A DNA stretch of 64,000 bases from Calditrichia bacterium (GCA_963777955.1 CAVZSQ010000026.1:26457-90456), one strand, 5' to 3'; positions 5,493 to 61,313 are shown, numbered from the stretch's first letter. Notes: generated by a model not told the origin, from the letters alone. Translations and numbers: made by a program.

Positions 5493-6059
5493 ATGCATGA
5501 GCACCTGAAAACAAGCCTGCGGGATAGTGTATTCTCGGCTACAGGGCAAAATGTTGCCCGCTGTTATTTATGCGGAAAATGCTCTGCCGGTTGTCCCCTG
5601 ATATCCGAAATGGATTTTACTCCTCATCAGGTTCTACGCCTGCTGCAGCCGGGGCTGGACGATTGGGATAAACTGGCCCTGTCTTCCAAAGCTATCTGGT
5701 TATGCCTGACCTGTGAGACCTGCCATACCCGCTGTCCGCAGGAAGTCGATCTGCCCCGGATCATGGATTTTTTACGCCAGGAATCACGACGTAACAAATT
5801 GGTAAATCCTGCTGCCAAAAAAATTCTCGCTTTTCACCGGACCTTTCTTGATTCAGTAAAATATACCGGGCGTCTGTTCGAAATCGGTTTAATCGGGGGC
5901 TATAAATTGCGATCGTTGAATTTATTTCAGGACATTTCCATTGCGCCAAAAATGTTTTTAAAAGGAAAACTGAAAATCTGGCCGCATCGTGTAAAAAACA
6001 GATCATTGATCTCCCGGATTTTTAAAAAATCCTACGGCAATCAGGAGGAAACGGAATGA
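5493..6059 (+). CDS. hdrC: heterodisulfide reductase subunit C
   Basis: Two 4Fe-4S motifs (CYLCGKCSAGCP, CLTCETCHTRCP). The 4-nt overlap with hdrB suggests coupling. The start is uncertain: the track uses TTG 5406, I prefer ATG 5493, which gives about 189 aa. Confidence 0.85.
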   Translation: MHEHLKTSLRDSVFSATGQNVARCYLCGKCSAGCPLISEMDFTPHQVLRLLQPGLDDWDKLALSSKAIWLCLTCETCHTRCPQEVDLPRIMDFLRQESRRNKLVNPAAKKILAFHRTFLDSVKYTGRLFEIGLIGGYKLRSLNLFQDISIAPKMFLKGKLKIWPHRVKNRSLISRIFKKSYGNQEETE

Positions 6060-6931
6060 AAGTCGGATATTTCCCCGGTTGTTCGTTATTGGGTACTGCC
6101 CGTGAATATGATGAATCCCTGCGCATGATCAGTTCAGCGTTAAAGATCGAATTGGAAGAAATCAGGGATTGGAATTGCTGCGGAGCCACGGCCGCTCATA
6201 GTTTGAATAATATGCTGGCGCTGGCCTTACCGGCACGGATACTGGCCCTGGCCGAGGCACAAGCTGTCACCGAGTTGCTGGTTCCCTGTGCGGCCTGCTA
6301 TCATCGCCTGATGGTTACTCTGCATGAAATCAGGAAGAATCCTGCCTTACTCCCTCGTATTGCAGATACTATCGAGATGCCTTTGACCGGAAATATTAAG
6401 GTTCTGAATATACTGGATTTTCTGGAAAAACATTTTCTGAATCAGGTTGCGACTTTATCTTTTCAACCTTTTGCCCGTAAAGTTGCCTGTTATTACGGAT
6501 GCCTGTTAGTACGGCCGCCGGAAGTTGTAGAATTTGAACGCTATGAAGATCCGCTGGTCATGGAAAATATTGTCCGGAGTGTTGGTGCCGAACCTGTCCA
6601 GTGGGCATATAAAGTGGAATGCTGCGGGGCGGGACTTTCGATTCCCCGTACAGATATCGTTGCGCAGCTGGCCGGTAAAATTGTCGATGATGCCGAGAAA
6701 AGCGGTGCCGCTGCAATTATTGTCGCCTGCCCGATGTGCCAATCCAACCTGGATATGCGCCGCAGCCAGATCGACCGATATCTGAAAAGAAAGAGCCGGC
6801 TTCCCGTTCTATATATTTCACAGGTGATTGGCCTGGCCCTGGGTCTCGACCGCAAGTCCCTGGGACTGCACCGGCACATCGTTCCGATGAACATGCCGCG
6901 TACAGGCAGTACCCGCGGAGGAAAATTAGTT
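6056..6931 (+). CDS. hdrB: heterodisulfide reductase subunit B (no stop codon before the hdrA start)
   Basis: Two CCG-domain signatures (DWNCCGA, KVECCGAG) and CPMCQ.NLD. The frame runs without a stop into the HdrA module. I set the end at the base before the hdrA ATG. Confidence 0.8.
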
Positions 6932-8954
6932 ATGGCCAGAATAGGTGTTTTTGTCTGTCATTGCGGAGAGAATATCGGTGCAACCGTGGATTGTGCACGT
7001 GTAGCCGAACTGGCCGCCCGCATACCGGGCGTTACTTACAGTGTTGATTATAAATACATGTGCTCAGATCCCGGACAGAATATGATCCGTGATGCCATCA
7101 GGGATAAAAAACTGACCGGGGTAGTAGTTGCGGCCTGCTCACCGCGCATGCATGAACCAACTTTCCGGCGGGCCTGTGCCGAGAGCGGATTAAATCCTTT
7201 CATGTGCGAGATGGCCAACCTGCGCGAGCACTGCTCCTGGGTGCATGAGAAAACCGAGGAAACCACCCGCAAAGCACTGGATCTGGTGCGAATACTAGTT
7301 GAAAAAGTAAAACGTAATGCCCCCTTATTTCCGATAAAAGTTCCGGTGACCAAAACGGCACTGGTGCTGGGCGGTGGTATTGCCGGGATACAGGCCAGTC
7401 TGGATATCGCTAATGCCGGTCATAAGGTCATCCTGGTTGAAAAAGATCCCTCCATCGGCGGGCACATGTCGCAACTATCCGAAACCTTTCCTACCCTGGA
7501 CTGTTCGCAGTGTATCCTGACTCCGCGTATGGTGGAGGTAGCGCAACATCCTAATATTACGCTGTATACATATTCAGAATTGGAAAGTGTTGATGGATTC
7601 ATTGGGAATTTTAAAGTGAAGATCCGCAAAAAAGCCCGCAGTCTCGACGAAAAACTGTGTACGGGTTGCGGAATATGCACGCAGAAATGTCCCATCAAAA
7701 AATTACCCAGTGAATTCAATGCCGGTCTGGGTATGCGCACGGCGATCTATGTTCCTTTTCCCCAGGCAGTTCCCAACAAACCAGTTATCGACCGGGACCG
7801 AGTGCACTTTTTACCGCAAAGGATCCTGCAAACTGTGCGCGAAGGTTTGTCCGACCCAGGCGATCCGTTTTGACCAGCAGGATGAGATCATCGAAGCAAA
7901 TGTCGGTGCGATCGTAGCCGCGACAGGATTTGATACGGTAGGTACCGATTTCTTTCCAGAATACGGATATGGCGAATATACCGATGTTATTACGGGATTA
8001 CAATTCGAACGGCTGGCTTCGGCCTCCGGTCCAACCACCGGAGAAATTCGCCGGCCTTCGGATGGTAAGGTGGCAGAAACCGTAGTTTTTATTGCCTGCG
8101 CCGGTTCACGTGATCCGGCCAAAGGGATTGATTACTGTTCAAAGATTTGCTGCATGTACACTGCCAAGCATGCGATGTTGTATAAACATAAAGTCCATCA
8201 CGGCCAGGCTTATGTATTTTACATGGATATCCGGGCGGGTGGAAAAATGTACGAGGAATTTGTTCGCCGGGCTATTGAAGAAGACGGGGTAATGTATGTG
8301 CGCGGGCGGGTATCGCGCATCTACAAAAAAAATGGAAAACTGGTGGTAAAAGGGGTAGATACCTTGCTTAATTCCAAACCAATGGAAATCGAAGCAGACC
8401 TGGTGGTACTGGCCACGGCCATGGTAGCGAACAAGGATGCAGAATCCCTGGCTCAGAAACTGCACATCAGTTATGATCCATATCATTTCTTTGCCGAAGC
8501 ACATCCCAAATTACGCCCGGTTGAAACCAATACCGCCGGTATTTTCCTGGCCGGAGCCTGCCAGGCACCGCGTGATATTCCTGAAACGGTAGCGCAAGCT
8601 TCGGGTGCCGCAGCCAAGACGGCAGCACTGTTTTCACAGGATGAACTTACCCGTGAACCGCTTATTGCCGTGGTCAATCGTACAGCTGCTCCTCTTTTTT
8701 CTTCCTGCGCGGGATGCTTTTTATGCCAGCAGGCTTGCCCATACCAGGCAATTGAAAAAGAGGAAATTAAAACCCGGGATGGCCGCCTGATCAAAACTGT
8801 GGCCAGGATAAATCCTGGTTTGTGTCAGGGTTGCGGCACCTGTGTGGCTGTCTGCCGTTCAAAATCTATAGATTTGCAGGGATATACCCACCGGCAAATT
8901 TATGCGGAAGTTATGTCCTTGTGGAACTGGAGTACTGAAAATGTCAACGTTTGA
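6932..8954 (+). CDS. hdrA: heterodisulfide reductase subunit A (FAD/Fe-S), apparent +1 frameshift near 7790-7800
   Basis: GGAGG sits about 10 nt upstream of the ATG at 6932. HdrA features: GVFVCHCGENIG, the FAD fold VLGGGIAGIQASLDIANAGHKVILVEK, and several CxxCxxCxxxCP motifs. PVIDRD in one frame continues as ECTFYRKGSCKLCAKVCPTQAI in the next, pointing to one extra base near 7799. Confidence 0.88.
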
Positions 8955-14629: not shown

Positions 14630-16306
14630 ATGCTAAAATCAAAAAAATACGCAATAATAATTCTAACTCTTGCTACACTTTTGAGCGCATGTTTTACTGC
14701 AGATCAACCGCGCACAATTCAGCGCAGCGATGTGATTTCTGCCGAAAATATTATAGGGCTGAATTTTACCGATGCCGAGCGGGATTCTCTGCTGAAAGAT
14801 TTACAGGATAACCGCCGCCAGGCCTATTCTAAGATCCACGAAATAGTGATACCGAACCAGATCCCCCCGGCGCTCACATTTAATCCGATCCCGCTGGGAT
14901 TCCAACCCAAAAATCAGCAGAACATTTTAAAGTTGAGCCCCCCGCAGCAACTGACTGTGCCCGAAAACAGGGAAGAGTTGTGCTTTTATACTGTACGTGA
15001 TCTGGGTGAACTGCTGCGTACCCGCAAGATTACATCGGTTGAATTGACGCACTTATACTTAAACCGCTTAAAAAAATATGATCCGCAATTGCATTGTGTC
15101 ATCTCTCTGACGGAAGAGCTGGCTTTGCAGGAAGCACAGGCTGCCGATCAGGAAATCGCAGCCGGTAATTACCGTGGTCCGTTGCATGGTATCCCCTATG
15201 GCGCTAAAGATCTGCTGGCGGTCAAAAAATATAAAACGACCTGGGGTGCCATGCCTTATAAAGATCAGGTTATCGACCGTGATGCAACTGTTATTAAAAA
15301 ATTACATGCCGCCGGCGCAGTGCTGGTGGCTAAACTTACCCTGGGCGCACTGGCCTGGGGGGACGTGTGGTACGGAGGTAAGACCCGAAATCCCTGGGAT
15401 CCACAGGAAGGTTCCAGTGGATCGTCAGCAGGATCAGCCGCGGCAACTGCGGCCGGACTGGTTCCTTTCGCTATTGGTACCGAAACCTGGGGCTCAATTG
15501 TGTCCCCTTCGACACGCTGTGGTACCAGCGGTCTGCGTCCCACTTACGGGCGGGTCAGCAGAACCGGAGCCATGGCCCTGAGTTGGTCCATGGATAAAAT
15601 CGGTCCCATCTGCCGGTCGGTCGAAGACTGTGCCATAATATTTAATACAATATATGGACCGGATAATGAAGACCAGTCAGTCTATGACTTTCCTTACAGT
15701 TATGATGCCAATCTGGATCCCACCCGATTAAAAGTCGGGTATCTGAAATCTGCTTTTGAGGAAAAATATGACCAGCAGCGATTGGATCAGGAAACTCTGG
15801 ATATAATGCAGCAGAAGTTGAACGTACAGTTAATTCCCATCACACTGCCAGATCTCCCGATTCAGTCCCTGGCCATTATCTTAAATGCCGAGGCCGCTGC
15901 CGCATTTGACGATTTAACCCGTTCCAACCGCGATGATTTAATGGTGCGGCAGGTGCGCGATGCCTGGCCCAACGTTTTCCGTGCTTCACGATTCATCCCG
16001 GCAGTTGAATATATTCAGGCAAACCGTATTCGCTTTATGCTGATCCAGGAGATGCGTAAATTGTTTGAACAGATTGATATCTATATCGCACCTTCCTTTG
16101 CCGAGGATAATCTGCTGCTGACCAATCTTAGCGGACATCCTTGTGTGGTGCTGCCGAATGGTTTTGATCAGAAGGGCAACCCAACCAGTATCAGTATCAT
16201 CGGTAATTTATTTGATGAGGGCAGATTACTGGCTTTTGCCAATGCCTACCAGCAGGCCACCTCATTTCATAAACAATATCCGCCACAATTTAAAGTTTCT
16301 GATTAA
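14630..16306 (+). CDS. amidase-signature family enzyme, predicted lipoprotein
   Basis: Lipobox LLSAC after an N-terminal hydrophobic segment. Amidase signature GSSGSSAGSAAATAAGLVPFAIGTETWGSI..P and a KD(L/N) catalytic Lys region. Confidence 0.85.
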   Translation: MLKSKKYAIIILTLATLLSACFTADQPRTIQRSDVISAENIIGLNFTDAERDSLLKDLQDNRRQAYSKIHEIVIPNQIPPALTFNPIPLGFQPKNQQNILKLSPPQQLTVPENREELCFYTVRDLGELLRTRKITSVELTHLYLNRLKKYDPQLHCVISLTEELALQEAQAADQEIAAGNYRGPLHGIPYGAKDLLAVKKYKTTWGAMPYKDQVIDRDATVIKKLHAAGAVLVAKLTLGALAWGDVWYGGKTRNPWDPQEGSSGSSAGSAAATAAGLVPFAIGTETWGSIVSPSTRCGTSGLRPTYGRVSRTGAMALSWSMDKIGPICRSVEDCAIIFNTIYGPDNEDQSVYDFPYSYDANLDPTRLKVGYLKSAFEEKYDQQRLDQETLDIMQQKLNVQLIPITLPDLPIQSLAIILNAEAAAAFDDLTRSNRDDLMVRQVRDAWPNVFRASRFIPAVEYIQANRIRFMLIQEMRKLFEQIDIYIAPSFAEDNLLLTNLSGHPCVVLPNGFDQKGNPTSISIIGNLFDEGRLLAFANAYQQATSFHKQYPPQFKVSD

Positions 16307-16307
16307 A

Positions 16308-16330
16308 TAACCGCGGAACGTCTGCGGTTA
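16308..16330. terminator. putative bidirectional terminator hairpin between convergent amidase and selB genes
   Basis: TAACCGC-GGAACGTCT-GCGGTTA lies in the 29-nt gap between the two stop codons. The flanks are A/T-rich on both sides. Confidence 0.45.
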
Positions 16331-16335
16331 ATATC

Positions 16336-18249
16336 TTATAAATTAGGGCCTTTTTTTCGAATGTCGCCGCTGCGAATGGTGAAACCGCTGGCATCCAGAT
16401 ATTCGAAAATGGGTATGGCATATTTTCTGGTTGTGGCAATAAAATTTTTTAAAGCCGCCACCGGCATTTGTGCTTGACCCGAGAAATAATCCCGCAGAAA
16501 CTGAATTAACTGTTCGTGAACCGCATGATGCAAAAATAATTTTTGATTGATGGAAAACAGCAGTTTCTGCCTGATCAAAGTATTGATCAGTACGCGCACT
16601 TCTTCGACCGGCATTTGCAGCAATCCGGATAATTCAGTTATATCAGGCGGGCTGAATTTGGCCCTGGCCAGTTTTTCCAGAAGATGTTCTCCGGACTGGT
16701 TCAGATCCTGAGCGATCTTGATGGTAAAATCAGCAAGAGAATAAACATTCTGATCCTGCTTAATAAGATTAGCTTTCACTGAATTCTGCAAAACCGCTGT
16801 ATATAATTCTTCCGGCAGCCAGTTTTTTCCGGTACCTGTTCTTAATTCCGGCAAATTAATTCCGGCCTTAAGGGGATTGCGGCGATGAAAATTTCTGATA
16901 TGATCGGTGATTTCAGCACTTAGCGCTTTAAAATGAGCGGTATGAACATAATGTTCCGATCCTTTGATGGTAATTATCCGGACTTTCTCCGCCGCCGCCA
17001 GTTCGGCAGTATATTTTTTAATGGTATCCGGCTGTTCGAATAGTTTTGCCTGCAAAAATTGCCAGGGCAGGGGATTGAGTTCCTGATCGAAAATTATCCT
17101 TTCGATCTGTGCCGGAACGTCATTTCCGGACATGACGGCAAAGTATTCCGGCCAGTTTTTTTCTGCCGATGCCAGGCGGGCTGGATTAATCTCCAGGATA
17201 GTTCCACCGGCCAGAGTAAGCACCGGGGAATGCCGGCGGACCAGAAAGGCATCACCGGGTGCAGCCGCGACCGCTTCGTCTAATTTAATGCGAACATGGT
17301 AGGATTGATTTGCCTGCAGAAAACGTGTATCATCATACCAGAAAATATGACCCGGTTTTTCTGCCGTACCGGTATATACCTGTACCCGGCTCCGGTTTTT
17401 AATTTGAACAGGTAAATGGGAAACCGTGCGCAGGCTGCCGCAAAATTCAATGACCGGCAGCATGGTACCGGGTGGTGCCAGCACATCACCGCGAAGAATC
17501 TCGTCTTTAGCCAGGTCACTGAGATTTACCGAGGCCCGCTGATTTATTTCGACCTGATCGGTGTCCCGGGTATGGATCTGTAATCCCCGCACTTTGACTT
17601 TCTTGCCGCCGGGATAAATCTCTACTTCTGCACCTGTATTCAGGTTTCCGCTCAGAACGGTCCCGGTCACCACGGTACCAAAACCTTTGATCTGAAAGGA
17701 TCGGTCGATCGACAGGCGGAAAGGACGGCTGGAATGTTTCTGCCGGGCAGTATTGATTTTATCTTCGATAGCCTGCCGGAGCTGAACGATATTGATATTT
17801 TTCAGCGCCGAAACAGGAATTACCGGTAAATGTTCAAGGCTGTATTTTTTTAATAAACTCACAACCTCCTGTTGAACCAGTTCCAGCCACGGTTGCTCCA
17901 CCAGGTCGATTTTGTTAAGTACCACAATACCATCACGGATATTAAAGAAATTCAATATATCCAGATGCTCAATTGTTTGCGGCATAATACCATCATCGGC
18001 GGCAATAACCAGCAGGAAAAAATCGATGGTACTCACCCCGGCCACCATGTTGCGGATGAATTTTTCATGACCGGGTACATCAATAATAGTTACCTGATCA
18101 TGCCAGTAGGCGAAACCGATATCGATGGTGATACCGCGTTCTTTTTCTTCTTTTAACCGGTCGGTATCGATACCGGTAAGGGCTTTGATTAAGGCGGTTT
18201 TTCCGTGATCAATATGTCCCGCGGTGCCGATGATAGTGTGTTTGTTCAT
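16336..18249 (-). CDS. selB: selenocysteine-specific translation elongation factor
   Basis: GTPase motifs [16 protein letters not shown] and NKID, followed by long C-terminal winged-helix extensions (637 aa). It lies immediately downstream of selA with a 4-nt overlap. Confidence 0.92.
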
Positions 18250-19613
18250 GGCAGGTTATTCAGGGCGGATATAATTTCAGAGCAATCTTTTTTGAATACA
18301 GCCAGCAGGTTAAGATGAAAGAAATCATTTTCGATGTAGCCGATAATGGGTATGGCACGCTTGCGGAAATAAGCGGAAACTTTTTCACTGGTCAGTGTTT
18401 GAGATATAATCTTCAAGGCTACTGCCGGAAGCGGAAATACCGGATATGCTCCGCTGCCCACCCGGCCCTGCGCTTCTTCGACTATTACTTTATCGCGCAA
18501 TTCCGCTTTTAAACTGCCGAGAATTTCACGGGCCAGCATCCTTAATTCTTCGGGTCGGCGTGATAATAAGTTCAGGGTCAGATTATCCTGCCGCAGGGAT
18601 TCTTGTTTCAGATATTTCCTCAGACAATCGGCCAGCAAGCTCAGGGTTGTCTTATTACAGCGTAAGGCGCGCAATAAATGATTCTGTCTGATTTTTTTCA
18701 GTAATTCTTTTTTACCCAGGATGATGCCGGACTGAGGGCCGCCCAGCAGTTTATCTCCGGAGAAAGTTACGATGTCGATTCCTGCGCTGATCATTTCGCT
18801 TACCACCGGCTCGTAACCTAAACCCAGTTCACGCATATCGACCAGCGCACCGCTGCCCAGATCGAAAATCAACGGCAACTGCTTTGCCTGAGCCAGGTTG
18901 TGGACATCTTTGATCGCCGGTTTAGCTGTAAAGCCTACGATTTGATAGTTACTGGGATGAACCAGCAGAATAGCGGCCGTACGGGCAGTAATGGCCTGTT
19001 CATAATCAGTTAAATGAGTTTTATTGGTAGTACCCACTTCCACCATTTTTGCCCGGCTTATTTTCATCACATCCGGCATGCGGAAGGATCCCCCGATCTC
19101 AACCAGTTCACCGCGGGAGACGATGACCTCTTTATTGACGGCCAGGCTGTTCAGGGTCAGCAGAACCGCCGCAGCATTGTTATTTACTACCACGGCATCT
19201 TCTGCACCGGTTAATATTTTTAGCAGTGGAACCACATGATCCAGGCGCTCACCGCGTTTACCGTTCTCCAGGTTAATTTCCAGATCAACGTATCCAGCCT
19301 GCTGCGATAGCAGCCGGAGATCCTGATCAGCAAAGGGCGCGCGTCCCAAACCGGTATGGAGAATAACACCGCTGCAATTGATGACATGTTTACAGGCCGG
19401 AACCAGCAGGGCTGCGATCGTTTTTTCCACCCGCTGGCTGATCAGCGTTAATAGTTCTTCACGGTCCGCTTGCTGCAGGGGGGTCTGACGCAACTGAGTC
19501 AGTTCTGTTTCAATAATCCGTTTTAGATAGATCTGATCGAGGTGCCGCAATTGCGGGGCCAGCTGTTCAAGTATCTGGTTGACGGGCGGTATATTTGCGA
19601 AGGGATTAGTCAT
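18246..19613 (-). CDS. selA: L-seryl-tRNA(Sec) selenium transferase
   Basis: 455 aa with INCSGVILHTGLGRAP, the PLP-lysine region FSGDKLLGGPQSG, and the overall SelA layout. Confidence 0.9.
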   Translation of the reverse strand: MTNPFANIPPVNQILEQLAPQLRHLDQIYLKRIIETELTQLRQTPLQQADREELLTLISQRVEKTIAALLVPACKHVINCSGVILHTGLGRAPFADQDLRLLSQQAGYVDLEINLENGKRGERLDHVVPLLKILTGAEDAVVVNNNAAAVLLTLNSLAVNKEVIVSRGELVEIGGSFRMPDVMKISRAKMVEVGTTNKTHLTDYEQAITARTAAILLVHPSNYQIVGFTAKPAIKDVHNLAQAKQLPLIFDLGSGALVDMRELGLGYEPVVSEMISAGIDIVTFSGDKLLGGPQSGIILGKKELLKKIRQNHLLRALRCNKTTLSLLADCLRKYLKQESLRQDNLTLNLLSRRPEELRMLAREILGSLKAELRDKVIVEEAQGRVGSGAYPVFPLPAVALKIISQTLTSEKVSAYFRKRAIPIIGYIENDFFHLNLLAVFKKDCSEIISALNNLP

Positions 19614-20881
19614 TCAATTTTTCTTTGATAATTACCCGTACCTGTTTAATCCGGCGTCTGAATACTTTTTCAATCACAAATTCGTAACCATTAAAAAGAA
19701 CCGATTGTTTCTCCTGCGGAACCGATCCAAACTGGCCATATAAAAATCCGGCCAGCGTGGTTACACCCTCTTCAGCCGGTAAATCGAGTTTTAATATATC
19801 TTTGATCTCGCTCAGGTCCATGGAACCATCAATGATAATTTCAGTTTCGTTCAAACGCTGATACAACGGCAGTTCCAGATCATGTTCATCCTGGATTTCA
19901 CCGAAAATTTCTTCCATTATGTCTTCCAGCGTAACTAATCCGGAAGTACCTCCGTACTCATCGACCACAATCGCCATATGAATTTTCTGACTTTGAAATT
20001 CCCGTAATAATTCATCGATCTTCTTCTGTCCGGGCACGAAATAGGCCGGACGAGCCAGTTTTTCCAGGTTGATCCCGCTGCCGGCCTGCTGATCAAGATA
20101 GACCAGCAGATCTTTGACGAACAGTATACCCACGATATTATCCACTTTTTCTTTATATACCGGAATGCGGCTGTGCAGGTTCTTACGAATCAGATCTAAC
20201 AGCAGGTTGAATTCAATATCCAGAGGCACACAGACCATATCGATCCGTGGGACCATAATTTCCCGTACGGTGGTTTCGCCAAATTCGAAAATGGAGTGAA
20301 TCATCTCCTTCTCTTCTTTTTGCAGGGTCCCTTTTTCTTCGACAAAATCCAGCAGGGAACGTCAGCTCCTGATCGGATAAATGAAGTTTGTTCTTATGTA
20401 TTCTGAAAAGGGTGGTAAGCCATTGGGTCAGGGTATAGAAGATGCTGACCACGGGCAGAAACAGATAGTATACGAGAGTGAGCGGGAAGGCAAACCTGCG
20501 GGCCAGGTGTTTGGCATTTCTGACTGCGCCGATTTTAGGGACAATTTCAGAGAAGATCAGGATAACGAAAGTGACCACTATAACATTGATTAAAATACCA
20601 ATCTGCAGATCTATATTTAAATTCCGGCAGATATCCAGGGTCAGGATGGTGGCCAGAGATGCTGCTGCGATATTGACAATCGTATTACCGATTAAGATGG
20701 TAATCAGCAATTTTTTGGGGGAGGTCAGCAATTGGACGATATGCCGGCTCTGGAAATCGGTCTTGCTGCGCAGGCGTTCCAGATCTGTCGACGAAAGGGA
20801 AAAAAATGCCGTTTCACTGGCGGAAAAGAAAGCCGAGATGATCAATAACAGCAGGAATATGAATAAATATGCTACGTACAT
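19606..20881 (-). CDS. CorC/HlyC-family transporter-associated protein (DUF21-CBS-CorC_HlyC), apparent frameshift near 20355-20362
   Basis: The N-terminal DUF21 membrane part (ORF 20213-20881, ...LHLSDQELT) continues in another frame as SLLDFVEEKGTLQKEEKEMIHSIFEFGETTVREIMVPR, followed by the CBS pair and the CorC_HlyC domain (ORF 19606-20304). Confidence 0.85.
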
Positions 20882-53394: not shown

Positions 53395-54412
53395 GTGCTC
53401 GTGTCTAAAAAAGCGCTTGTGGCCAAAGCAATTTTTAAGTACTTACGGTTTTTTTCCCACTATCTTGAGCAGTTGAAGTCAAATCAGCTCTCCATACTGG
53501 GCTACCACCGTATTTTTGATTATGGCCGGAAAAATTTCCCTTTTTATCGCAGTATTATCAGTGCCAATCCCGAGATGTTCGAACAGCAAATGCGCTTTAT
53601 AAAGAAAAACTTCAATGTGATCAATTTTCAAATCATGCAACAGATGATTGATGCCGGGGAGCAGATACCCAAGGGTACTTTGATCATCACCTTCGACGAC
53701 GGTTATGCCGATAATTATGATATTGTTTTCCCGATCCTGAAAAAATATGACTTAACCGCAACGATATTTACTATGACGTCAGCCATTACCGACGGTGAAC
53801 CGTTCTGGTTTGAACTGATAAAATACTTCTTTGATACCTGTAAGCCCGGATTATATACATTTAAAGATGAAATATTGCGTCTGGATATTACTGACACGAG
53901 TCGTGAAAGTAACCCGTAAAGAGTTTTGGATATATATCCGCGCTATTGAGAATGCCCGGCGTGTAAATATTATCAGAAAAATTAAAAATGATATAAGTAC
54001 ATCGTTATCAGCAGCGGATTTGGAACTAATAAAACCGCTGAACTGGGAACGGATCCGCGAGATGAGCGAGCGGGGGATTGAATTCGGCTCGCATACAATC
54101 AGCCACCCCTATTTGATTAATCTGACCCCGGATGAGTTGATCCATGAATTGACTGTATCTAAAAAGACAATTGAAGAAAATATCAATAAGCCGGTTATTA
54201 GTATTGCTTACCCATTCGGTGCCCATAATGAGCGGGTCGAAGAGCAGGTCAAAAAGTGCGGGTACCGCTTCGGGATTTCTTACAGAAATGATGTGATAAA
54301 AAACTTGAACAATCAGGACATATTTAAACTACCGCGTATTCATGTGGATTATGAATTCGATTATTTCTTTTTTAAAGCAAGATTATTGCTACCCGGACTG
54401 TTTCTGAACTAA
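53395..54412 (+). CDS. polysaccharide deacetylase (NodB domain), apparent frameshift near 53890-53915
   Basis: LIITFDDGYADNY is in the first frame. GIEFGSHTISHP and IAYPFGAHN are in the second frame (ORF 53831-54412). Confidence 0.82.
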
Positions 54413-54422
54413 GGAGATCAAA

Positions 54423-55445
54423 ATGATACATCTTGAGGAATATAAACCTGAATATAAAGACGATATTATAAAACTTTTAGGTAACCGGGAATATAAAAAA
54501 AGGATCTGGGACTGGCAGTATTTTATGAATCCTTATACCGGCGAAGGTTTGCGAATGCCGGTGATTCTGGATGATGATAAGGTGGTCGGCTTTTGCGCAG
54601 CCGCACCGGTCAAAATAAAGTTTAAACAAAAACTGATGCTTGCGCACTGGATTGTTGATCTCTATGTCCATCTGCTTTACCGCGGTAAAAACGTAGGCCG
54701 CCGGATCTATCAATTACAGAAGGAGTATCCGCTTTCTATTAACGTATGGTATCAGCGATATGGCCGCTCCGATCGTCAGAAAACTGGGCTGGAAAGTAAA
54801 TTACGAGATAGAGGAATATTACTTGCAAAAGCGGATTACGGACATTAAAAGTCTTATAAAAGTAGGAATTCAAAAATTTTCCAAAATGGGTAAGTCAGCA
54901 CCCCAGGCTATTCATAGTTCTTTGACAGCAGTAGTAGTTCCTGTAGGGGAAATATTGGGCTTGATAGATTCAATCTGGAATCCATGTCAGAATGCCTATC
55001 CGAATGTAATTATCGAAATGCAGAATATATAGCCTGGAAATATTCAAAACATCCCCTGGCTACTATCGTGCCATATTAGTCAAAAAAGAGGATAAGCCGG
55101 TTGCTATCGGAATATTTCGTGCTAATAAAAACAGGGCCAGGCTGGTCGATTATATCGGCCCGTATCGTGATAGCGAAATTAAATCAAAAATTATCGATAC
55201 TTTTATTGCCGAATGTCCTTCCTCGGCACAGTTAAACTGCATCTCGACCGATTCAGGGAGTTAAACTCCTGTTTGAGGACTATGGTTTCTTAAAATTCAA
55301 GCGCAGACCCAGATTCTACGTCTTTTCTAAACAATTTAGAGGTGAAGAAATTGAGCGCGACTGGTTCATCATGGCCGGCGATGCCGATGATGATTTGCTC
55401 GAAGCCGCAAAAGATTATTATGCCTTAGGAGCGGACTCACGATGA
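54423..55445 (+). pseudogene. GNAT-like acetyltransferase gene broken by about 4 frame disruptions
   Basis: Pieces in three frames can be concatenated: ...VVGFCAAAPVK...LYRGKNVGRRIY.. / GISDMAAPIVRKLGWKV.. / RNAEYIAWKYSKHPL / YRAILVKKEDKPVAIGIFR..ARLVDYIG.. / ELKLLFEDYGFLKFKRRPRFYVFSK..DWFIMAGDADDDL. The final stop overlaps the racemase ATG. Confidence 0.7.
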
Positions 55446-56209
55446 AAAGAGCGAAAATCATCGGTGTGGTGGGCGGGGTAGGCCCCTACGCCGGCCTGGA
55501 TTTAAATAAAAAAATTTTCGATCAGACCAGGGCGGTCACCGACCAGGATCATGTACCGGTCATTCTTGTTTCCCTGTCCGAGCAGATTCCAGACCGCACG
55601 GAATTCTTATCCGGTAAAGTAGAACAAAATCCCGCTGAGCCGATTGCCAAAATAATCAAAACCTTGCCGGCACTGGGAGTGAAAGTGGTGGGTATCCCCT
55701 GTAATACAGCACATGCCCCGCGGATATTCAACCGGATAGTGCAAATATTGAAGCATAATAAGATACGAATTAAAGTACTGAACATGATCAGCGAAACAGC
55801 CCGCTATACCAGGAAATCGTACCCGGCGGTTAAAAAAGTCGGATTACTGGGGACCAGCGGAACCGTTAATGCTGATGTTTATGGTCAAATCATGCGACCG
55901 CTGGGTCTGGATCTAGTATACCCCTCTGAAGATTTTCAACATAAACTCGTCCACGATGCCATATACAATAAAAAATACGGGATAAAAGCACAATCCAGCC
56001 CGGTTTCGGCCAGAGCGCAGCTGCAGTTATTGAAAGCAGCGGTACAACTTAAACAAAAAGGGGCACAATTAATTATTCTGGGTTGCACGGAAATACCCCT
56101 GGCTCTCAGCGGAAAAAAAATAGCAGGGCTGCCGGCTGTTGATCCGACATTAATCCTGGCCAGAGCTTTAATCAGGGAAGTTGCGCCACAAAAATTAAAA
56201 AAAGAGTAG
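55442..56209 (+). CDS. aspartate/glutamate-family amino-acid racemase (aspartate racemase-like)
   Basis: IGVVGGVGPYAG, GIPCNTAH and ILGCTEIPL, i.e. the two catalytic Cys contexts. Confidence 0.85.
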   Translation: MKRAKIIGVVGGVGPYAGLDLNKKIFDQTRAVTDQDHVPVILVSLSEQIPDRTEFLSGKVEQNPAEPIAKIIKTLPALGVKVVGIPCNTAHAPRIFNRIVQILKHNKIRIKVLNMISETARYTRKSYPAVKKVGLLGTSGTVNADVYGQIMRPLGLDLVYPSEDFQHKLVHDAIYNKKYGIKAQSSPVSARAQLQLLKAAVQLKQKGAQLIILGCTEIPLALSGKKIAGLPAVDPTLILARALIREVAPQKLKKE

Positions 56210-56284
56210 AACATTTTTCTCGTACTAAAGATTGTTATAAGCACACCGATTAACAAATTAATCAGTATAACAGGGTAGCCGGCA

Positions 56285-57295
56285 ATGAAAGCAGTCATAT
56301 TCAAATCTTTAAACCGTTTTGATGCCTTTTTAACCAGGTTGAATGAACTTAACATTGATACAACTGTTCTGGATTTTTCAGATCCGGCCTGGATAGATTT
56401 TGATTACAGCAAAGTTGATTTTGTTATCTATTTTTCAAATTTTAAATTCTCGTCCAATCATCCTCTGGCTCTCTACGAGGTCTATGATAATTTAATTCAT
56501 ATCAGCCAGCATTATCCACATTTGAAAATGTTTCCTGATCCGAATATCATCCGTTTTTATAATGATAAATACAAGCAATACCTGTTCCTGACTAAAAATG
56601 GTTTTCCGATACCGCCCACCTTGCCGCTTTATTCGGAAGCCTGTGTTGCACTGGCTGAACAAAGATTTGGTTACCCGCTGATTCTGAAGAATAGATATGG
56701 TGCCGGCGGCGATTATGTACTTAAAATTGATACGCCAAAGCAGCTGAGAACCTACTATAATTTTTCAAAACTGAACCTGTTCAATTTTCCGGCGCTGAAA
56801 TACTTTTTTAAATTATTCAGCAACCGTGAATTCCTGTATCTGTGGATTAAAGCAAGAAACATGAAGTATCCGTTTTTCTCTGCCCCCTTGCTGGCACAGA
56901 AATTTATTAAAATTGATTGTGATCTTAAGATTGTTGTAGGGGACGGTGAAGTTGTGGAAGGGCATTGGCGCAGACCGGCCGACACAAATATGTGGAAAAT
57001 GAATATTGACGGGGGCGGAGTAGGTGTGTGGAGTTATATACCGGAATCGATTCTGGAACTCAGCACCACCCTGGCCAAAAAGTTAAACACTTCCTGGTTG
57101 AATATCGACCTGTTCCGGAGCGGAGACCAATTCGTTATATCCGAGTTTTCACCGGTCTGGCATCATTATCGCTACAAAGAGAAACCATCATTCATCTATG
57201 CCGACGATTATAATGTAAAAATGCCCCTGGAGAAATCCTTAAAATTGGAAGAAATCATTATTGAATCACTCATAAACAGGGTTAAAAACAAATAA
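56285..57295 (+). CDS. ATP-grasp domain protein
   Basis: K..Q..FL...G.P.P.T, GYPLILKNRYGAGGDYV, and the E-rich Mg/ATP region EFSPVWHHY. Confidence 0.7.
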   Translation: MKAVIFKSLNRFDAFLTRLNELNIDTTVLDFSDPAWIDFDYSKVDFVIYFSNFKFSSNHPLALYEVYDNLIHISQHYPHLKMFPDPNIIRFYNDKYKQYLFLTKNGFPIPPTLPLYSEACVALAEQRFGYPLILKNRYGAGGDYVLKIDTPKQLRTYYNFSKLNLFNFPALKYFFKLFSNREFLYLWIKARNMKYPFFSAPLLAQKFIKIDCDLKIVVGDGEVVEGHWRRPADTNMWKMNIDGGGVGVWSYIPESILELSTTLAKKLNTSWLNIDLFRSGDQFVISEFSPVWHHYRYKEKPSFIYADDYNVKMPLEKSLKLEEIIIESLINRVKNK

Positions 57296-57322
57296 CCATT
57301 ACGGTGAGAGTAGTAAATCCTT

Positions 57323-58705
57323 ATGCGCCTCTATGAATCCTTGGTGAAAAAAGTCCTCTATCCCCTGTGGATGGTCCAGCAGGGTGACCGCGGAATTATA
57401 AAGTATTTAAATTATTTTGATCCGGTTGATCACTGGCAGGCTGCACAACTTGAACAATGGCAAACGCAATGGCTTAAAAATATTCTGATTCATGCTTATG
57501 AGCATACGAAATATTTCAAAGAAGTTTTCGACCAGCTTAAGTTTAATCCGCAGCAGATTAAACGGGTGCAGGATATAAGCCTGTTACCAATACTGGAAAA
57601 ACAGACTATCCGGGAAAGATTCGCAGATTTAACCGCAACAAATATCAAACCGGCTGATCTGCTGGACGCTTCGACCGGCGGATCGACCGGAATACCGCTT
57701 AAATTTCTTCGCGACCAGGAGTGTGTGTATTTACGCAAAGGGCAGGAATTATATTTTGATCGTAAAATTGGTTATGACCTCGGCAAACGAATGGCCTATT
57801 TTGTTTCCGGTTCTCATTATAGCGGGGCCATTGCTTCCCTGAAAGCTAAGCTAAAAAATTTTACCTGCGAACGCATGCTCAGTTTCGATCCGCATGATAT
57901 AACCGATGACTATATGCAGGAGTTTGCGGAAAAATTTATTGAATTCAGACCGGAAATAGTCAAGTGCTTTCCCAACGCCCTGATACCCTTCGCCGAATTT
58001 GTTCAGAAAAACAGAATTGAACTTCCTGCCGTAAAGGCAATAACCTGCACCGGTGAAACGTTGTATGACGATCAGAAAAAATTGCTGGAACATGTTTTTA
58101 AAGGGAAAGTATACGAAAAAGTCGGCACCCGCGAATCGGGTGTTATTGCCGCTGAATGCCTGCAACGCGACGGACTGCACATCTTCTCCGCCGGAGTTCT
58201 ATTTGAGATCCTGCGGGCCGACGGAACCCCCGCGGCCGCAGGGGAAATCGGCAGGGTTATACTGACTGATTTTTTTAACAAAGGCATGCCGCTGATACGT
58301 TATGACATAGGGGATATGGCTGTTGCCGCCCCCGGGCAAAATTGCCCCTGCGGAAGCCCGCTGCCTAAAATTGCCCGGTACCTGGGCAGAACACGTGATA
58401 TTGTCATCGATGCTAAAGGAAATCCCCGCCCGGGCTATCTGTTTGTGGAGGTGATCCGCAACATGAATTATAAATCACAGTTTCAGATTATCCAGGAAGA
58501 AAATTCTCTCCTGCATACCAGGATAATTAAGCAGGAAAATGAAGAAATCGATTTGGTAAAAATTAAGGCGGAATTCGAGAAGATAGTCGGCAGCAGTTTC
58601 CGTATCACTTTCGAGTTCGTCAAGGAAATACCCAGGGATCCTTCCGGAAAATACGGTTATGTGATTTCAAAAATCAAAAAACCGCTAAAATTACAGAATG
58701 TCTAA
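57323..58705 (+). CDS. phenylacetate-CoA-ligase/CapK-like adenylate-forming enzyme
   Basis: ASTGGSTGIPLKF (a degenerate SSGTTG motif), YDIGD, and a C-terminal SGKY..V segment. Confidence 0.75.
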   Translation: MRLYESLVKKVLYPLWMVQQGDRGIIKYLNYFDPVDHWQAAQLEQWQTQWLKNILIHAYEHTKYFKEVFDQLKFNPQQIKRVQDISLLPILEKQTIRERFADLTATNIKPADLLDASTGGSTGIPLKFLRDQECVYLRKGQELYFDRKIGYDLGKRMAYFVSGSHYSGAIASLKAKLKNFTCERMLSFDPHDITDDYMQEFAEKFIEFRPEIVKCFPNALIPFAEFVQKNRIELPAVKAITCTGETLYDDQKKLLEHVFKGKVYEKVGTRESGVIAAECLQRDGLHIFSAGVLFEILRADGTPAAAGEIGRVILTDFFNKGMPLIRYDIGDMAVAAPGQNCPCGSPLPKIARYLGRTRDIVIDAKGNPRPGYLFVEVIRNMNYKSQFQIIQEENSLLHTRIIKQENEEIDLVKIKAEFEKIVGSSFRITFEFVKEIPRDPSGKYGYVISKIKKPLKLQNV

Positions 58706-59822
58706 GATAAAAGTCGCTTTTGTTATAGATCTTATCTCGGAACATCCCGGCGGCACCGAAAACCAGTTACTGCTGCTGCTGAAACATATAGATAAGAGCC
58801 GTTTCGATCCTTATCTGATTTTATTGCGTACCGACCGGCAGATCTTACCGGAAATTCCCGAAGTACATATACACGTATGCCATTTTGGATCTTTCCTCAG
58901 TTTAAAATCCTATTATAACCTGCTTAAATTGAGCAGGTTCTTTAAAAAAGAAAGAATCAGCATAGTCCAGACCTACTTCAGAGATGGTAATATAGTCGGT
59001 GTAATGGCAGCCTGGTTTGCCGGTGTGGCTACCATAGTCTCCAGCCGCAGAAATCAGGGCTTCTGGCATAACCGCAGGGAAATCATGATCCTGCGGCTGC
59101 TTAACCGGTTAGTAAACTGCTTTATTGCTAATTCCCAGGCTATCAAGACCTATACGCATCAGGTTGAAGGTGTCCCTCTGCAGAAGATAGAAGTAATCTA
59201 TAATGGGTATGACGCGAATGCTGATTATCCGCTGCCGTTGCCGGAACAATCCCCACGGCCGGCCGGCCAGCTGGATCTGGAAAAATATCAACAGGTAATT
59301 GTTCAGGTCAGCAATCTGAGAGAGGTGAAAAGAATTGATGTACTGATCAGGGCTGCCGGTGTGGTTGCAGCCCGTTTTCCCCGGACATTATTCCTGGTTA
59401 TCGGCGAAGGACCTGAACGTGGTCGCTTAACTGCCCTGATCAACGAACTGCAGTTAGCCGATCACGTTTACCTGGCCGGATTCCGTTCTGATGTCAAAGA
59501 AATTCTGAAACAGAGCACCATCGGGATCCTGAGCTCAGATTCCGAAGGGCTATCCAATACTATTATCGAATATATGGCTGCAGGTTTACCGGTGGTTTGT
59601 ACGGAGGTCGGCGGAAATGTTGAACTCATTGAGCACAATAAGCAGGGATTTTTATTCAAACCCGGCGACTATCAGGAGTTAGCCAGCTGCCTGATGTCGC
59701 TGATTCAGGATCGTAAACTGGCCGGTACATTGGGACAGGCCGCAGCACAGCGAGCCCTGGAAAAATTTGGAGTTGAACGGTACATCGCGTCGACCGAACA
59801 ATTTTTTCTTGAACATTGCTGA
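58698..59822 (+). CDS. family-4 (GT-B) glycosyltransferase
   Basis: GGTENQ N-domain, then SNLREVKR.D.LI.A, SSDSEGLSNTIIEYMAAGLPVVCTEVGGN.E. Confidence 0.88.
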   Translation: MSKIKVAFVIDLISEHPGGTENQLLLLLKHIDKSRFDPYLILLRTDRQILPEIPEVHIHVCHFGSFLSLKSYYNLLKLSRFFKKERISIVQTYFRDGNIVGVMAAWFAGVATIVSSRRNQGFWHNRREIMILRLLNRLVNCFIANSQAIKTYTHQVEGVPLQKIEVIYNGYDANADYPLPLPEQSPRPAGQLDLEKYQQVIVQVSNLREVKRIDVLIRAAGVVAARFPRTLFLVIGEGPERGRLTALINELQLADHVYLAGFRSDVKEILKQSTIGILSSDSEGLSNTIIEYMAAGLPVVCTEVGGNVELIEHNKQGFLFKPGDYQELASCLMSLIQDRKLAGTLGQAAAQRALEKFGVERYIASTEQFFLEHC

Positions 59823-59867
59823 AATTGTTTGCATACTACAATTGTCGCTGATACGGCAAATCCGGCA

Positions 59868-61313
59868 ATGGATCAGAACCAGACTGAGCACCGCGTTATG
59901 ATAAAACCTTTAATAACTTTCTTAAATATATTAAAATGGAAAGGTCATCACTGGTTACCCGGCTATTATTCCTGGTGGCAGGAGAATAAAAAAATTTCCA
60001 GGACCGGGAACATCCAGGTAATGTTTCTGGTGGTTGATCATTTTGAGCCGTCCAGGAAAAAAGGAGCGCTGGGTGTGCAGGAATTGCGGGAATGGTGTGA
60101 AAAATATGCTGAAATTGCCGCCAGGCATACCGATCCCGATGGTACACATCCCCAGCATACCTGGTTTTATCGTTATGATTATCCTAATTTTGAATGTATA
60201 AAGATATTGAGTGAATATGTATTCAAAGGATTCGGTGAAATCGAATTTCACCTGCATCACGGTAACGACACTGCTGAAACTTTTGAAAAAAAGATCAAAG
60301 AAGGGGTTGAATGGTTTAACCGCTGCGGAGCGATGATAACTGCCGGCGAGATACAGCAGAAGTTCTTTGCCTACATTGCCGGCAACTGGGCGCTGGATAA
60401 CGGCAGGCGCAATCCGGAATTCAGCGGTGTAAATACCGAACTGGCCATACTGAACAAATATAATTGTTACGCTGATTTTACCTTCCCGGCTTTTGCTACG
60501 AATGCTCAACCCCGGCAGGTCAATTCACTATATTATGCCCAGGATGATCCGGGGCCAAAATCCTATAACACCGGCATTAAAATGAAAGTCGGCGGCCAGA
60601 AAAGCGGGGACCTGCTTATTTTTGAAGGACCTTTGTATGTGGACTGGAATTCCAGAAATATAGAATATGCTTCTTTCGAAAATTTCACTCCTTATAATCC
60701 CCGCAGGATTCAATACTGGTATAAGTCCGGTATTCATGTGCAGGGCAGACCGGAGTGGATATTTATTAAATTACATACTCATGGTATGCAAAGCCGGGAT
60801 ACATTTCTGAGCGACCAATTGCACCGACTTTGCACCGATTTGAAACAATGGTCCAGCGAAAATGGTATTGGCCTGCATTATGTCTCAGCCCGGGAGGCCT
60901 ATAATATTGCCAAAGCTGCCGAAGCAGGTCAAAGCGGCAATCCTGCAGCGTACCGGGACTATATTATCAACAAACCAGTGAACCGGCTTTTGTATTGCTC
61001 ACAACCGATGAGAATCGAAAAAATGACTGCCCAACAGGCTATTATTCATCTGGAGAATAATGGTCATGCTGCGCAAACAACCGAATTAAGATTCAACCAG
61101 GGGCTGCTGGCCGGAATCGAGGGTTACGGGATAAAATGCATCGAATACCTGGTGGATGGTCAGTCAACACTGCGACTCAAAATTGACGGGGCAGGGCAGG
61201 GAAAAATTCGTTTCCATAAGGACTACCGCTTGAAATCATCTCAGACTCCTGATCCAGTCAATTTTCCACTGGATGAACGATACGAATTGGTAAAAAACCA
61301 GCAGGGATCTTAA
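59868..61313 (+). CDS. hypothetical protein (last gene of the polysaccharide locus)
   Basis: Long ORF with coding-like composition. I recognise no family. Conserved-looking His/Asp-rich segments are VVDHFEP, EIEFHLHHGNDT, IAGNWALDNG and IKLHTHGMQ. The start is uncertain (TTG 59829, ATG 59868 or ATG 59898). Confidence 0.5.
   Translation: MDQNQTEHRVMIKPLITFLNILKWKGHHWLPGYYSWWQENKKISRTGNIQVMFLVVDHFEPSRKKGALGVQELREWCEKYAEIAARHTDPDGTHPQHTWFYRYDYPNFECIKILSEYVFKGFGEIEFHLHHGNDTAETFEKKIKEGVEWFNRCGAMITAGEIQQKFFAYIAGNWALDNGRRNPEFSGVNTELAILNKYNCYADFTFPAFATNAQPRQVNSLYYAQDDPGPKSYNTGIKMKVGGQKSGDLLIFEGPLYVDWNSRNIEYASFENFTPYNPRRIQYWYKSGIHVQGRPEWIFIKLHTHGMQSRDTFLSDQLHRLCTDLKQWSSENGIGLHYVSAREAYNIAKAAEAGQSGNPAAYRDYIINKPVNRLLYCSQPMRIEKMTAQQAIIHLENNGHAAQTTELRFNQGLLAGIEGYGIKCIEYLVDGQSTLRLKIDGAGQGKIRFHKDYRLKSSQTPDPVNFPLDERYELVKNQQGS

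Follow-up and report, generated by a model that had tools for sequence, protein, structure and literature searches.

The stretch of DNA analyzed here, 64,000 nucleotides (nt) from a Calditrichia bacterium (GCA_963777955.1, CAVZSQ010000026.1:26457-90456) and referred to as a whole as the window, contains a one-strand exopolysaccharide (EPS) locus that spans from approximately 35 kb to beyond 61 kb, in which three consecutive genes encode an aspartate-type amino-acid racemase, an ATP-grasp ligase, and a CapK-like adenylating enzyme. The metagenome-assembled genome has a size of 4.24 Mb in 27 contigs and is 91.8% complete. The original prediction took the three genes for a cassette that decorates the polysaccharide with D-aspartate or D-glutamate through a sugar carboxylate, an interpretation that is partly supported by the analysis.

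The racemase, the two ligases, and their neighbors

All three open reading frames (ORFs) lie on the plus strand and are full length relative to their homologs (98%-100% coverage), and each gene is present as a single copy in the genome. The intergenic gaps are 75 nt between the racemase and ATP-grasp genes and 27 nt between the ATP-grasp and CapK genes, and the start of the following glycosyltransferase family 4 (GT4) gene overlaps the CapK stop by 8 nt. Metagenomic near-copies of the three proteins share 93%-97% identity and have equal lengths. The consecutive trio is intact as described, and its families are upheld by profiles and folds (Table 1). In the three sequences, read by eye, there is no signal peptide or obvious membrane segment. 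A scan for promoters and terminators returned counts at the level of shuffled sequence, with no excess of terminator-like sites.

The racemase belongs to the superfamily of PF01177 (96.7 bits, cut-off 31) and also exceeds the cut-off of TIGR00035 (asp_race; 140 bits, cut-off 93.1). It is similar in sequence to the solved structures 1JFL, 2DX7, and 5B19, the closest being the aspartate racemase of Pyrococcus horikoshii (1JFL, E 1e-32). Both catalytic cysteines, whose presence had been predicted, are found in the motifs PCNTAH (Cys87) and GCTEIP (Cys215), which align to Cys82 and Cys194 of 1JFL, and both are kept in 21 of 21 locus-linked homologs. The residues R52 and K182 are the equivalents of Arg48 and Lys164 of 1JFL, and the four residues are kept in 20-21 of the same homologs. 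In aspartate racemase, Arg48 and Lys164 bind the side-chain carboxylate, as reportedly described by Ohtaki et al. in 2008. The homologs of this racemase are very numerous (5727 matches); in this genome, it is the sole family member found and is located inside the EPS locus.

In NCBIfam, the racemase is matched best by the cysteate racemase CuyB (NF052483), with 177.7 bits over the full length. This score is close to but under the equivalog cut-off of 190, so the protein is not filed as CuyB. The aspartate racemase family also includes arginine/lysine, homoserine, and cysteate racemases (PMC8142540), with CuyB as an experimentally shown member (PMC11193023), and the substrate is therefore described as aspartate-like and acidic by similarity only; it may be such an amino acid, and cysteate is also possible. 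The limitation of the donor to D-aspartate or D-glutamate, as proposed earlier, need not hold, since the match just under the CuyB cut-off leaves room for another D-residue. It is very unlikely that the decoration pathway favored below runs on L-cysteate or another sulfonated or beta-substituted aspartate analog, which would leave a D-sulfonate residue of permanent negative charge on the glycan: the experimentally supported CuyB is indeed the best full-length match, but the score is below the cut-off, its nearest relatives of solved structure are genuine aspartate racemases, and a Pfam scan of ORFs from the window showed no gene for making cysteate or sulfolactate. We know of no polysaccharide that contains cysteate.

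The ATP-grasp protein is assigned to its superfamily by a weak match to PF08443 (RimK-like; 38.9 bits, cut-off 21). Its AlphaFold model has a predicted local distance difference test (pLDDT) score of 84, and the best Foldseek matches of the protein are ArgX (3vpb), LysX/ArgX (5k2m), and RimK (5zct), with template modeling (TM) scores of 0.6-0.77 and a probability of 1.00, at a sequence identity of 14%-20%. The RimK family alpha-L-glutamate ligase (TIGR00768) was rejected with 58.2 bits against a cut-off of 143.4. A TupA-like (Cj1438C-type) amidoligase was rejected as well, as a Pfam scan at E 0.01 gave only RimK and ATP-grasp_3 domains; without the TupA-like signature, the protein is not of the Cj1438 amidoligase type. 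The name of the D-aspartate ligase AslA is not among its NCBIfam matches. A total of 525 homologs were found at approximately 56%-62% identity. In the fetched loci, the family occurs in Thermodesulfobacteriota, Nitrospirota, Calditrichota, Gammaproteobacteria, Fibrobacterota, and others. A GT2 gene of approximately 385 amino acids (aa) directly precedes ATP-grasp in three racemase-less loci (8772-9941 in L002, 8819-9967 in L006, and 8820-9992 in L030), and a DUF362 protein follows it in L006.

The CapK-like protein matches the PaaK-like structure 4r1l in the PDB with an E value of 1e-23. Its family is given by CapK_C (PF27533; the name is that of the Atlas), which is annotated on nearly all homologs, including one that is 97% identical, the assignment being read from their precomputed domains. 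The adenylation motifs are present, with an STGGSTG loop at residues 117-123 and a C-terminal SGK lysine (K443), and T118, G119, S121, T122, G123, S441, G442, and K443 are invariant in 23 homologs. NCBIfam gave sub-threshold PaaK-like matches only, and phenylacetate-CoA ligase PaaK (TIGR02155) was rejected with 75.1 bits against a cut-off of 646.3. In a FastTree phylogeny of 93 CapK-like sequences, three groups are seen: stand-alone paralogs in AsnB and dehydrogenase contexts, a clade of 30% identity located a few kb from racemase-less ATP-grasps, and the clade of the window protein, to which all racemase-linked CapKs belong.

The GT4 gene that follows has stp2 and BshA-like proteins as its best NCBIfam matches, both below cut-off, and the two GT4 genes of the locus show sub-threshold matches to BshA/MshA-type N-acetylglucosamine (GlcNAc) transferases. 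The next protein is 494 aa long from TTG 59829 or approximately 481 aa from ATG 59868. It has no match in Pfam, including Polysacc_deac_1, or in NCBIfam, and no match at E 1 among PDB sequence profiles, yet its model (pLDDT 84, predicted TM score 0.88) aligns by VIA-align to the Helicobacter deacetylase HP0310 (3qbu) with a Z of 17.1 and a root-mean-square deviation of 3.4 over 236 aligned residues. Other Z values are 16.6 for 3rxz, 16.2 for 5znt, 14 for ArnD, and 16-17 for mycobacterial and insect chitin deacetylases. Foldseek concurs, and the protein is, as judged from this predicted structure, a deacetylase-like (beta/alpha) barrel of the carbohydrate esterase family 4 (CE4) superfamily. 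Residues D70, H71, H143, H144, D147, and H318 are invariant in 13 homologs. The Atlas cluster containing this family has approximately 400 unnamed members.

Table 1. Positions in the window of the five genes of the proposed module and of the two damaged genes upstream.
Feature	Position	Strand	Length	Basis
Pyridoxal phosphate (PLP)-independent Asp-type amino-acid racemase	55442..56209	+	255 aa	PF01177, TIGR00035 above cut-offs
ATP-grasp ligase, uncharacterized EPS-locus family, RimK/LysX/ArgX-like fold	56285..57295	+	336 aa	PF08443
CapK-family (PaaK-like, ANL superfamily) adenylating enzyme	57323..58705	+	460 aa	PDB 4r1l; CapK_C on homologs
GT4 glycosyltransferase	58698..59822	+		Glycos_transf_1 and Glyco_transf_4 matches
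Protein of predicted CE4-superfamily fold with C-terminal beta domain	59829..61313	+	494 aa	Fold comparison of model
GNAT-like gene (context only)	54423..55445	+		Weak GNAT matches on first piece
Split CE4 polysaccharide deacetylase	53395-53919 and 53831-54412 (overlapping ORFs)			N- and C-terminal halves of PF01522

The EPS locus starts with a polyprenyl glycosylphosphotransferase (TIGR03025, above cut-off), a STAS protein, a Wza-like exporter, an AsnB-like amidotransferase, and an AMP-ligase. Wzz/Wzc-like genes, GT2 and GT4 transferases, a CE4 deacetylase, a Wzy-like gene, and a hexapeptide acyltransferase make up its middle part, followed by a Wzx flippase, an unassigned protein, a second deacetylase split by a frameshift, and a GNAT-like gene in several frames. 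The racemase, ATP-grasp, CapK-like, GT4, and 494-aa proteins come next, and a large surface protein with Ig and beta-helix features follows them. An XrtA/PEP-CTERM system was rejected, as the matches to TIGR03108, TIGR03098, TIGR03007, TIGR03018, TIGR03097, and TIGR03088 are all below cut-offs. An exosortase (PF09721) was not found in the 91.8% complete genome, despite the large EPS locus with XrtA-system-like genes. On both grounds, no name narrower than Wzx/Wzy-type EPS locus is given to it.

The split of the second CE4 deacetylase is a frameshift or an assembly error. The GNAT-like gene, of approximately 340 codons, can be read only by switching among about four frames, and its last piece overlaps the racemase start codon; it is far more damaged than the intact racemase, ATP-grasp, and CapK genes downstream. 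Frameshifts may also account for two overlapping same-strand ORF pairs elsewhere in the window (6056-7873 with 7710-8954 and 19606-20304 with 20213-20881). Interrupted frames at several places in the window point to either an error-prone assembly or decaying genes.

Recurrence and modularity across loci

Two scans were carried out, one anchored on the ATP-grasp protein (49 loci from species-representative genomes) and the other on the CapK-like protein (80 metagenome loci), and every gene of the window locus was mapped onto the loci of both. The glycan genes said to lie on both sides of the trio are confirmed, with the flippase, Wzy-like gene, and deacetylases upstream and the GT4 gene downstream; likewise, glycan genes homologous to the window locus are present in 44 of the 47 scorable ATP-grasp loci. 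No sign of a peptidoglycan or poly-gamma-glutamate setting was seen, although mur and cap genes were not explicitly searched for.

The order racemase, ATP-grasp, and CapK is found on six other contigs: L004 (Syntrophorhabdus), L008 (Nitrospiraceae), L052, L054, which is near-identical to L008, L057, and L064. Rearranged sets of the three genes occur in L033 and L042. Similarly, two loci of Gammaproteobacteria (L013 and L014) carry a CapK-GT4-CE4-like block a few kb upstream of Wzy, flippase, racemase, and ATP-grasp genes. The genomes of L005 and L049 also carry a CapK ortholog, its position relative to their loci not being fixed, and four further metagenome contigs, matched by size alone, are apparently common to all three homolog lists. 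The idea of a cassette is thus borne out by its recurrence in order, but the set is not a fixed trio; it is modular and extends to the GT4 and CE4-like genes. The co-inherited unit exceeds the trio, as GT4 and the CE4-like protein travel with the CapK clade: GT4 orthologs of 41%-47% identity stand immediately after CapK in L004, L008, L043, L052, L054, L056, L058, L059, L061, and L062, and the CE4-like protein accompanies the clade in 13 fetched loci besides the window.

The racemase stands directly upstream of a ligase gene in approximately 17 loci, in agreement with the earlier view that it is dedicated to the ligases. A total of 38 loci carry ATP-grasp with neither a racemase nor a CapK ortholog, and seven loci carry racemase and CapK without ATP-grasp. 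Geobacter hydrogenophilus DSM 13691 has only the ATP-grasp (L046), and the fetched loci with the trio include none from a cultured organism. In L055, L065, L067, L069, and L072, the racemase is directly upstream of CapK with no ATP-grasp, which makes CapK the more constant partner of the racemase. Another seven loci have ATP-grasp and CapK without a racemase in the fetched span, three of which end just upstream of ATP-grasp, where a racemase is possible. CapK alone or with only GT4 or CE4-like genes is found in 11 loci. In our reading, ATP-grasp and CapK-like genes are a general pairing in these loci, to which the racemase is added in one CapK clade. The racemase-linked ATP-grasps cluster on a quick tree, with eight label changes against 12.5 in shuffles, only one of 500 shuffles being as low; the window ATP-grasp groups with other trio members in a poorly resolved basal group.

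In a census of the phylum, ATP-grasp was found in four of 86 genomes, and the three besides the window genome have neither the racemase nor the CapK ortholog. Among approximately 200 evenly sampled Thermodesulfobacteriota, a CapK ortholog was found only in the Syntrophorhabdus genome itself. The module is therefore rare and patchy, which fits the horizontal movement of EPS tailoring modules.

This patchiness (for CapK, one in 201 sampled Thermodesulfobacteriota, the query genome itself), together with the separate occurrence of the genes, also favors an alternative in which the three enzymes perform independent tailoring functions and are mere neighbors in a mosaic locus, the racemase serving one ligase or a general D-amino-acid supply and the other enzymes attaching unrelated groups. 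Such an arrangement is distinctly unlikely. The same order of genes, joined by short or overlapping junctions, recurs in at least three phyla, the racemase-linked CapKs form one clade with the racemase-linked ATP-grasps also clustering, and the only racemase-family member found in the genome sits inside the locus.

Sets of ATP-grasp, GNAT, and AsnB-like genes are known to make free peptides such as N-acetylglutaminylglutamine amide, and the AsnB of the locus matches the amidotransferase of that family below threshold. It is nevertheless extremely unlikely that the product of the trio is a small molecule set free as a D-amino-acid dipeptide, solute, or signal in place of a glycan substituent, since in almost all loci with sufficient flanking sequence the racemase and ligase subfamilies lie among genes for flippases, polymerases, and glycosyltransferases, and no small-molecule-specific exporter or regulator was seen adjoining the genes.

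The acceptor and the proposed chemistry

The linkage of CapK to deacetylase genes was scored as a CE4-type gene at most 2.5 kb from CapK, and only CapK-like genes flanked on each side by 2.5 kb or more were counted. Such a gene is present in 13 of 14 ortholog loci and in 19 of 33 paralog loci; the controls, taken from these same loci with no CapK nearby, gave 1/35 for ATP-grasp, 1/10 for the flippase, 1/6 for Wzy, and 2/11 for AsnB. The linkage of CapK and CE4 seems to be general beyond the clade of the window protein. Distant CapK paralogs (26%-31% identity; L096, L100, L102, L124, L130, and others) have a canonical CE4 deacetylase gene directly after them, and their loci often contain an AsnB-like gene and a uridine diphosphate (UDP)-sugar dehydrogenase 3-4 kb upstream.

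A UDP-sugar 6-dehydrogenase (UDP-glucose/guanosine diphosphate (GDP)-mannose dehydrogenase family) was not found in the 91.8% complete genome with PF03721 and PF00984, which matched 13 and 11 of the 14 control genomes, respectively. When only loci of 8 kb or more are counted, one of 23 that bear the module has a dehydrogenase, versus 11 of 31 that bear distant CapK paralogs. The sugar carboxylate proposed earlier as the acceptor therefore has no visible source, and, considering also the CapK-CE4 linkage, a freed sugar amine is a likelier acceptor than a uronic acid for this clade. The sub-threshold BshA/MshA-type matches of the GT4 genes point toward a sugar amine too. The argument is circumstantial, given the incompleteness of the genome, the dependence among related loci, and the other roles that CE4 enzymes may have on the polymer.

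Amidation of a uronic acid, in which the ATP-grasp ligase, the CapK-like enzyme, or both activate the C6 carboxylate and join it to the D-amino acid made by the racemase to give a D-aspartyl or D-glutamyl uronamide, is unlikely on these counts. Its precedents are real, as the C-terminal ATP-grasp of Cj1438 amidates glucuronic acid (PMC11800379) and the glycine amide of N-acetylgulosaminuronic acid (GulNAcA) depends on the CapK-like VpsH (PMC13463779). The window locus has an AsnB-like amidotransferase, and the module of L004 (Syntrophorhabdus) is closed by a divergent 550-aa protein of the UDP-glucose/GDP-mannose dehydrogenase family (15280-16932), which has all three domains at low scores. 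Apart from the dehydrogenase searches, however, uronic acid amidation is at odds with the resemblance of the ATP-grasp protein to RimK/LysX with no TupA-like match, and it leaves the tight linkage of CapK and the CE4-like gene unexplained. A gene similar to the L004 dehydrogenase is present in a Nitrospiraceae genome (G092 C70).

The gene integrity, families, folds, conserved catalytic residues, and co-occurrence and linkage of the genes are established. The reading preferred for them, to which a probability of roughly 45% is given, is that the trio forms the front of a five-gene tailoring module (racemase, ATP-grasp, CapK-like, GT4, and CE4-like) that adds a D-acidic amino acid to the EPS repeat unit, through de-N-acetylation of an amino sugar, re-N-acylation with the D-acidic amino acid, and a second ligation by ATP-grasp. 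It draws on the operon-like gaps and overlap, the recurrence, the single CapK clade, the constancy of CapK as racemase partner, the CE4 linkage, the searches that showed no uronate source, the fold of the ATP-grasp, the conserved racemase residues, and the racD-aslA and VpsH precedents. The module would be co-transcribed, and its enzymes would modify the repeat unit of a Wzx/Wzy exopolysaccharide while it is still being assembled in the cytoplasm. GT4 would put an N-acetyl amino sugar on the lipid-linked repeat unit, and the CE4-like protein would strip the acetyl group and expose the amine. The racemase would convert an L-acidic amino acid (aspartate-like, with cysteate possible) to the D form, and the CapK-like enzyme, using ATP and an acyl-adenylate, would make the first amide bond involving the D-residue. 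The RimK/LysX-like ATP-grasp ligase would then make a second amide bond through an acyl-phosphate, most likely joining the amine of an amino acid to a free carboxylate on the decoration, by analogy with its structural relatives ArgX, LysX, and RimK, which are its nearest folds and add an acidic amino acid to a carboxylate. Every substrate in this scheme, the order of its steps, and the ligase that takes the D-residue are what we infer.

Several points weigh against the five-gene module. VpsH, the only genetically studied CapK-like enzyme, modifies the carboxylate of a uronic acid and not a sugar amine (PMC13463779). The Syntrophorhabdus module does end in a dehydrogenase, and one could be missing from the assembly of the window genome, given its completeness. 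EPS loci frequently encode CE4 deacetylases, whose action on the polymer may be an independent one. Furthermore, ATP-grasp lacks a racemase in most loci, and two loci (L070/L071 and L075/L076) combine ATP-grasp and CapK without one, so that the three enzymes are not an obligate unit. The counts come from ligase-anchored loci, in which related contigs are not independent samples. With two frameshifted genes just upstream of the racemase, the locus may be partly decayed, or the assembly error-prone.

Relation to known systems and significance

The racD-aslA operon (Racfm-Aslfm; Lactococcus lactis and Enterococcus faecium) is the closest documented pairing of an aspartate racemase with an ATP-grasp ligase, in this case a D-aspartate ligase (PMC4155827). 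D-aspartate is activated as beta-aspartyl phosphate and added to the peptidoglycan precursor, to be amidated later in some species (PMC4155827; PMC13631041). Both systems have a racemase gene beside an ATP-grasp ligase gene, with the racemase making the installed D-residue and an acyl-phosphate as the intermediate, in the window as proposed. The target of racD-aslA is the L-lysine of UDP-N-acetylmuramic acid-pentapeptide, whereas the window pair sits in an exopolysaccharide locus with a third, CapK-like ligase; the window ATP-grasp family is usually racemase-less, and the two ATP-grasps are likened at the superfamily level only. AsnB-like genes are often found beside the module, and it may be speculated that they amidate the D-residue, as happens in some racD-aslA species.

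VpsH from the Vibrio polysaccharide (VPS) cluster of Vibrio cholerae is genetically required for the glycine amide on the lipid-linked GulNAcA intermediate (PMC13463779, 2026). By description, it resembles the window enzyme as a cytoplasmic CapK/PaaK-like protein of a Wzx/Wzy EPS locus whose decoration is dispensable for chain assembly. Unlike the proposed module, it adds achiral glycine to a uronic-acid carboxylate with no racemase, ATP-grasp, or CE4 partner described, and the window genome shows no uronic-acid pathway. Similarly, Cj1438 of the Campylobacter jejuni HS:2 capsule is an ATP-grasp enzyme that amidates a capsule sugar and is encoded beside donor-making enzymes (PMC11800379). It belongs to the TupA-like family, in contrast to the RimK/LysX-like window protein, and its donors are ethanolamine or serinol phosphate and not a D-amino acid.

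The nearest folds of the window ATP-grasp, RimK, LysX, and ArgX, join an acidic amino acid through its amine to a carrier-held carboxylate, but their acceptors are proteins (RpsF and LysW), and no such carrier is encoded in the window locus. In mycothiol and bacillithiol synthesis (MshA-MshB-MshC-MshD and BshA-BshB-BshC), a GT4 enzyme attaches GlcNAc, whose amine is freed by a deacetylase and then acylated with an amino acid by an ATP-dependent ligase. This is the same order of chemistry as proposed for the module, an analogy of logic only, as the products there are free thiols made with L-cysteine by unrelated deacetylase and ligase families.

Amino-acid decoration of polysaccharides and the encoding of donor-making enzymes beside a ligase are already known in kind. 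The set of an Asp-type racemase, a RimK-like ATP-grasp, and a CapK clade is new, as are its extension to GT4 and a Pfam-less CE4-like family, the CapK-CE4 linkage, and the evidence against a uronate acceptor in this genome. A bolder and quite improbable extension is that CapK-like and CE4-type enzymes form a widespread, undescribed pair for de-N-acetylation and re-N-acylation in environmental EPS loci, which in the clade of the window protein has recruited the racemase and the RimK-like ATP-grasp to build a short acidic peptide stub containing a D-residue on the amino sugar. The stub would possibly be oligomeric, as with RimK, or sulfonated, and if this is true, a secreted glycan would bear a side chain resembling that of peptidoglycan.

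Amino-acid substituents alter the charge, antigenicity, and enzyme resistance of surface polysaccharides, and very few of the enzymes responsible have been identified, with hardly any from environmental phyla. The cassette described here is a recurring, defined five-gene set, each step of which is a testable prediction. The CapK-CE4 linkage could explain the role of many genes called CapK in EPS loci, and D-residues in the polymers of the biofilm matrix would feed the environmental pool of D-amino acids.

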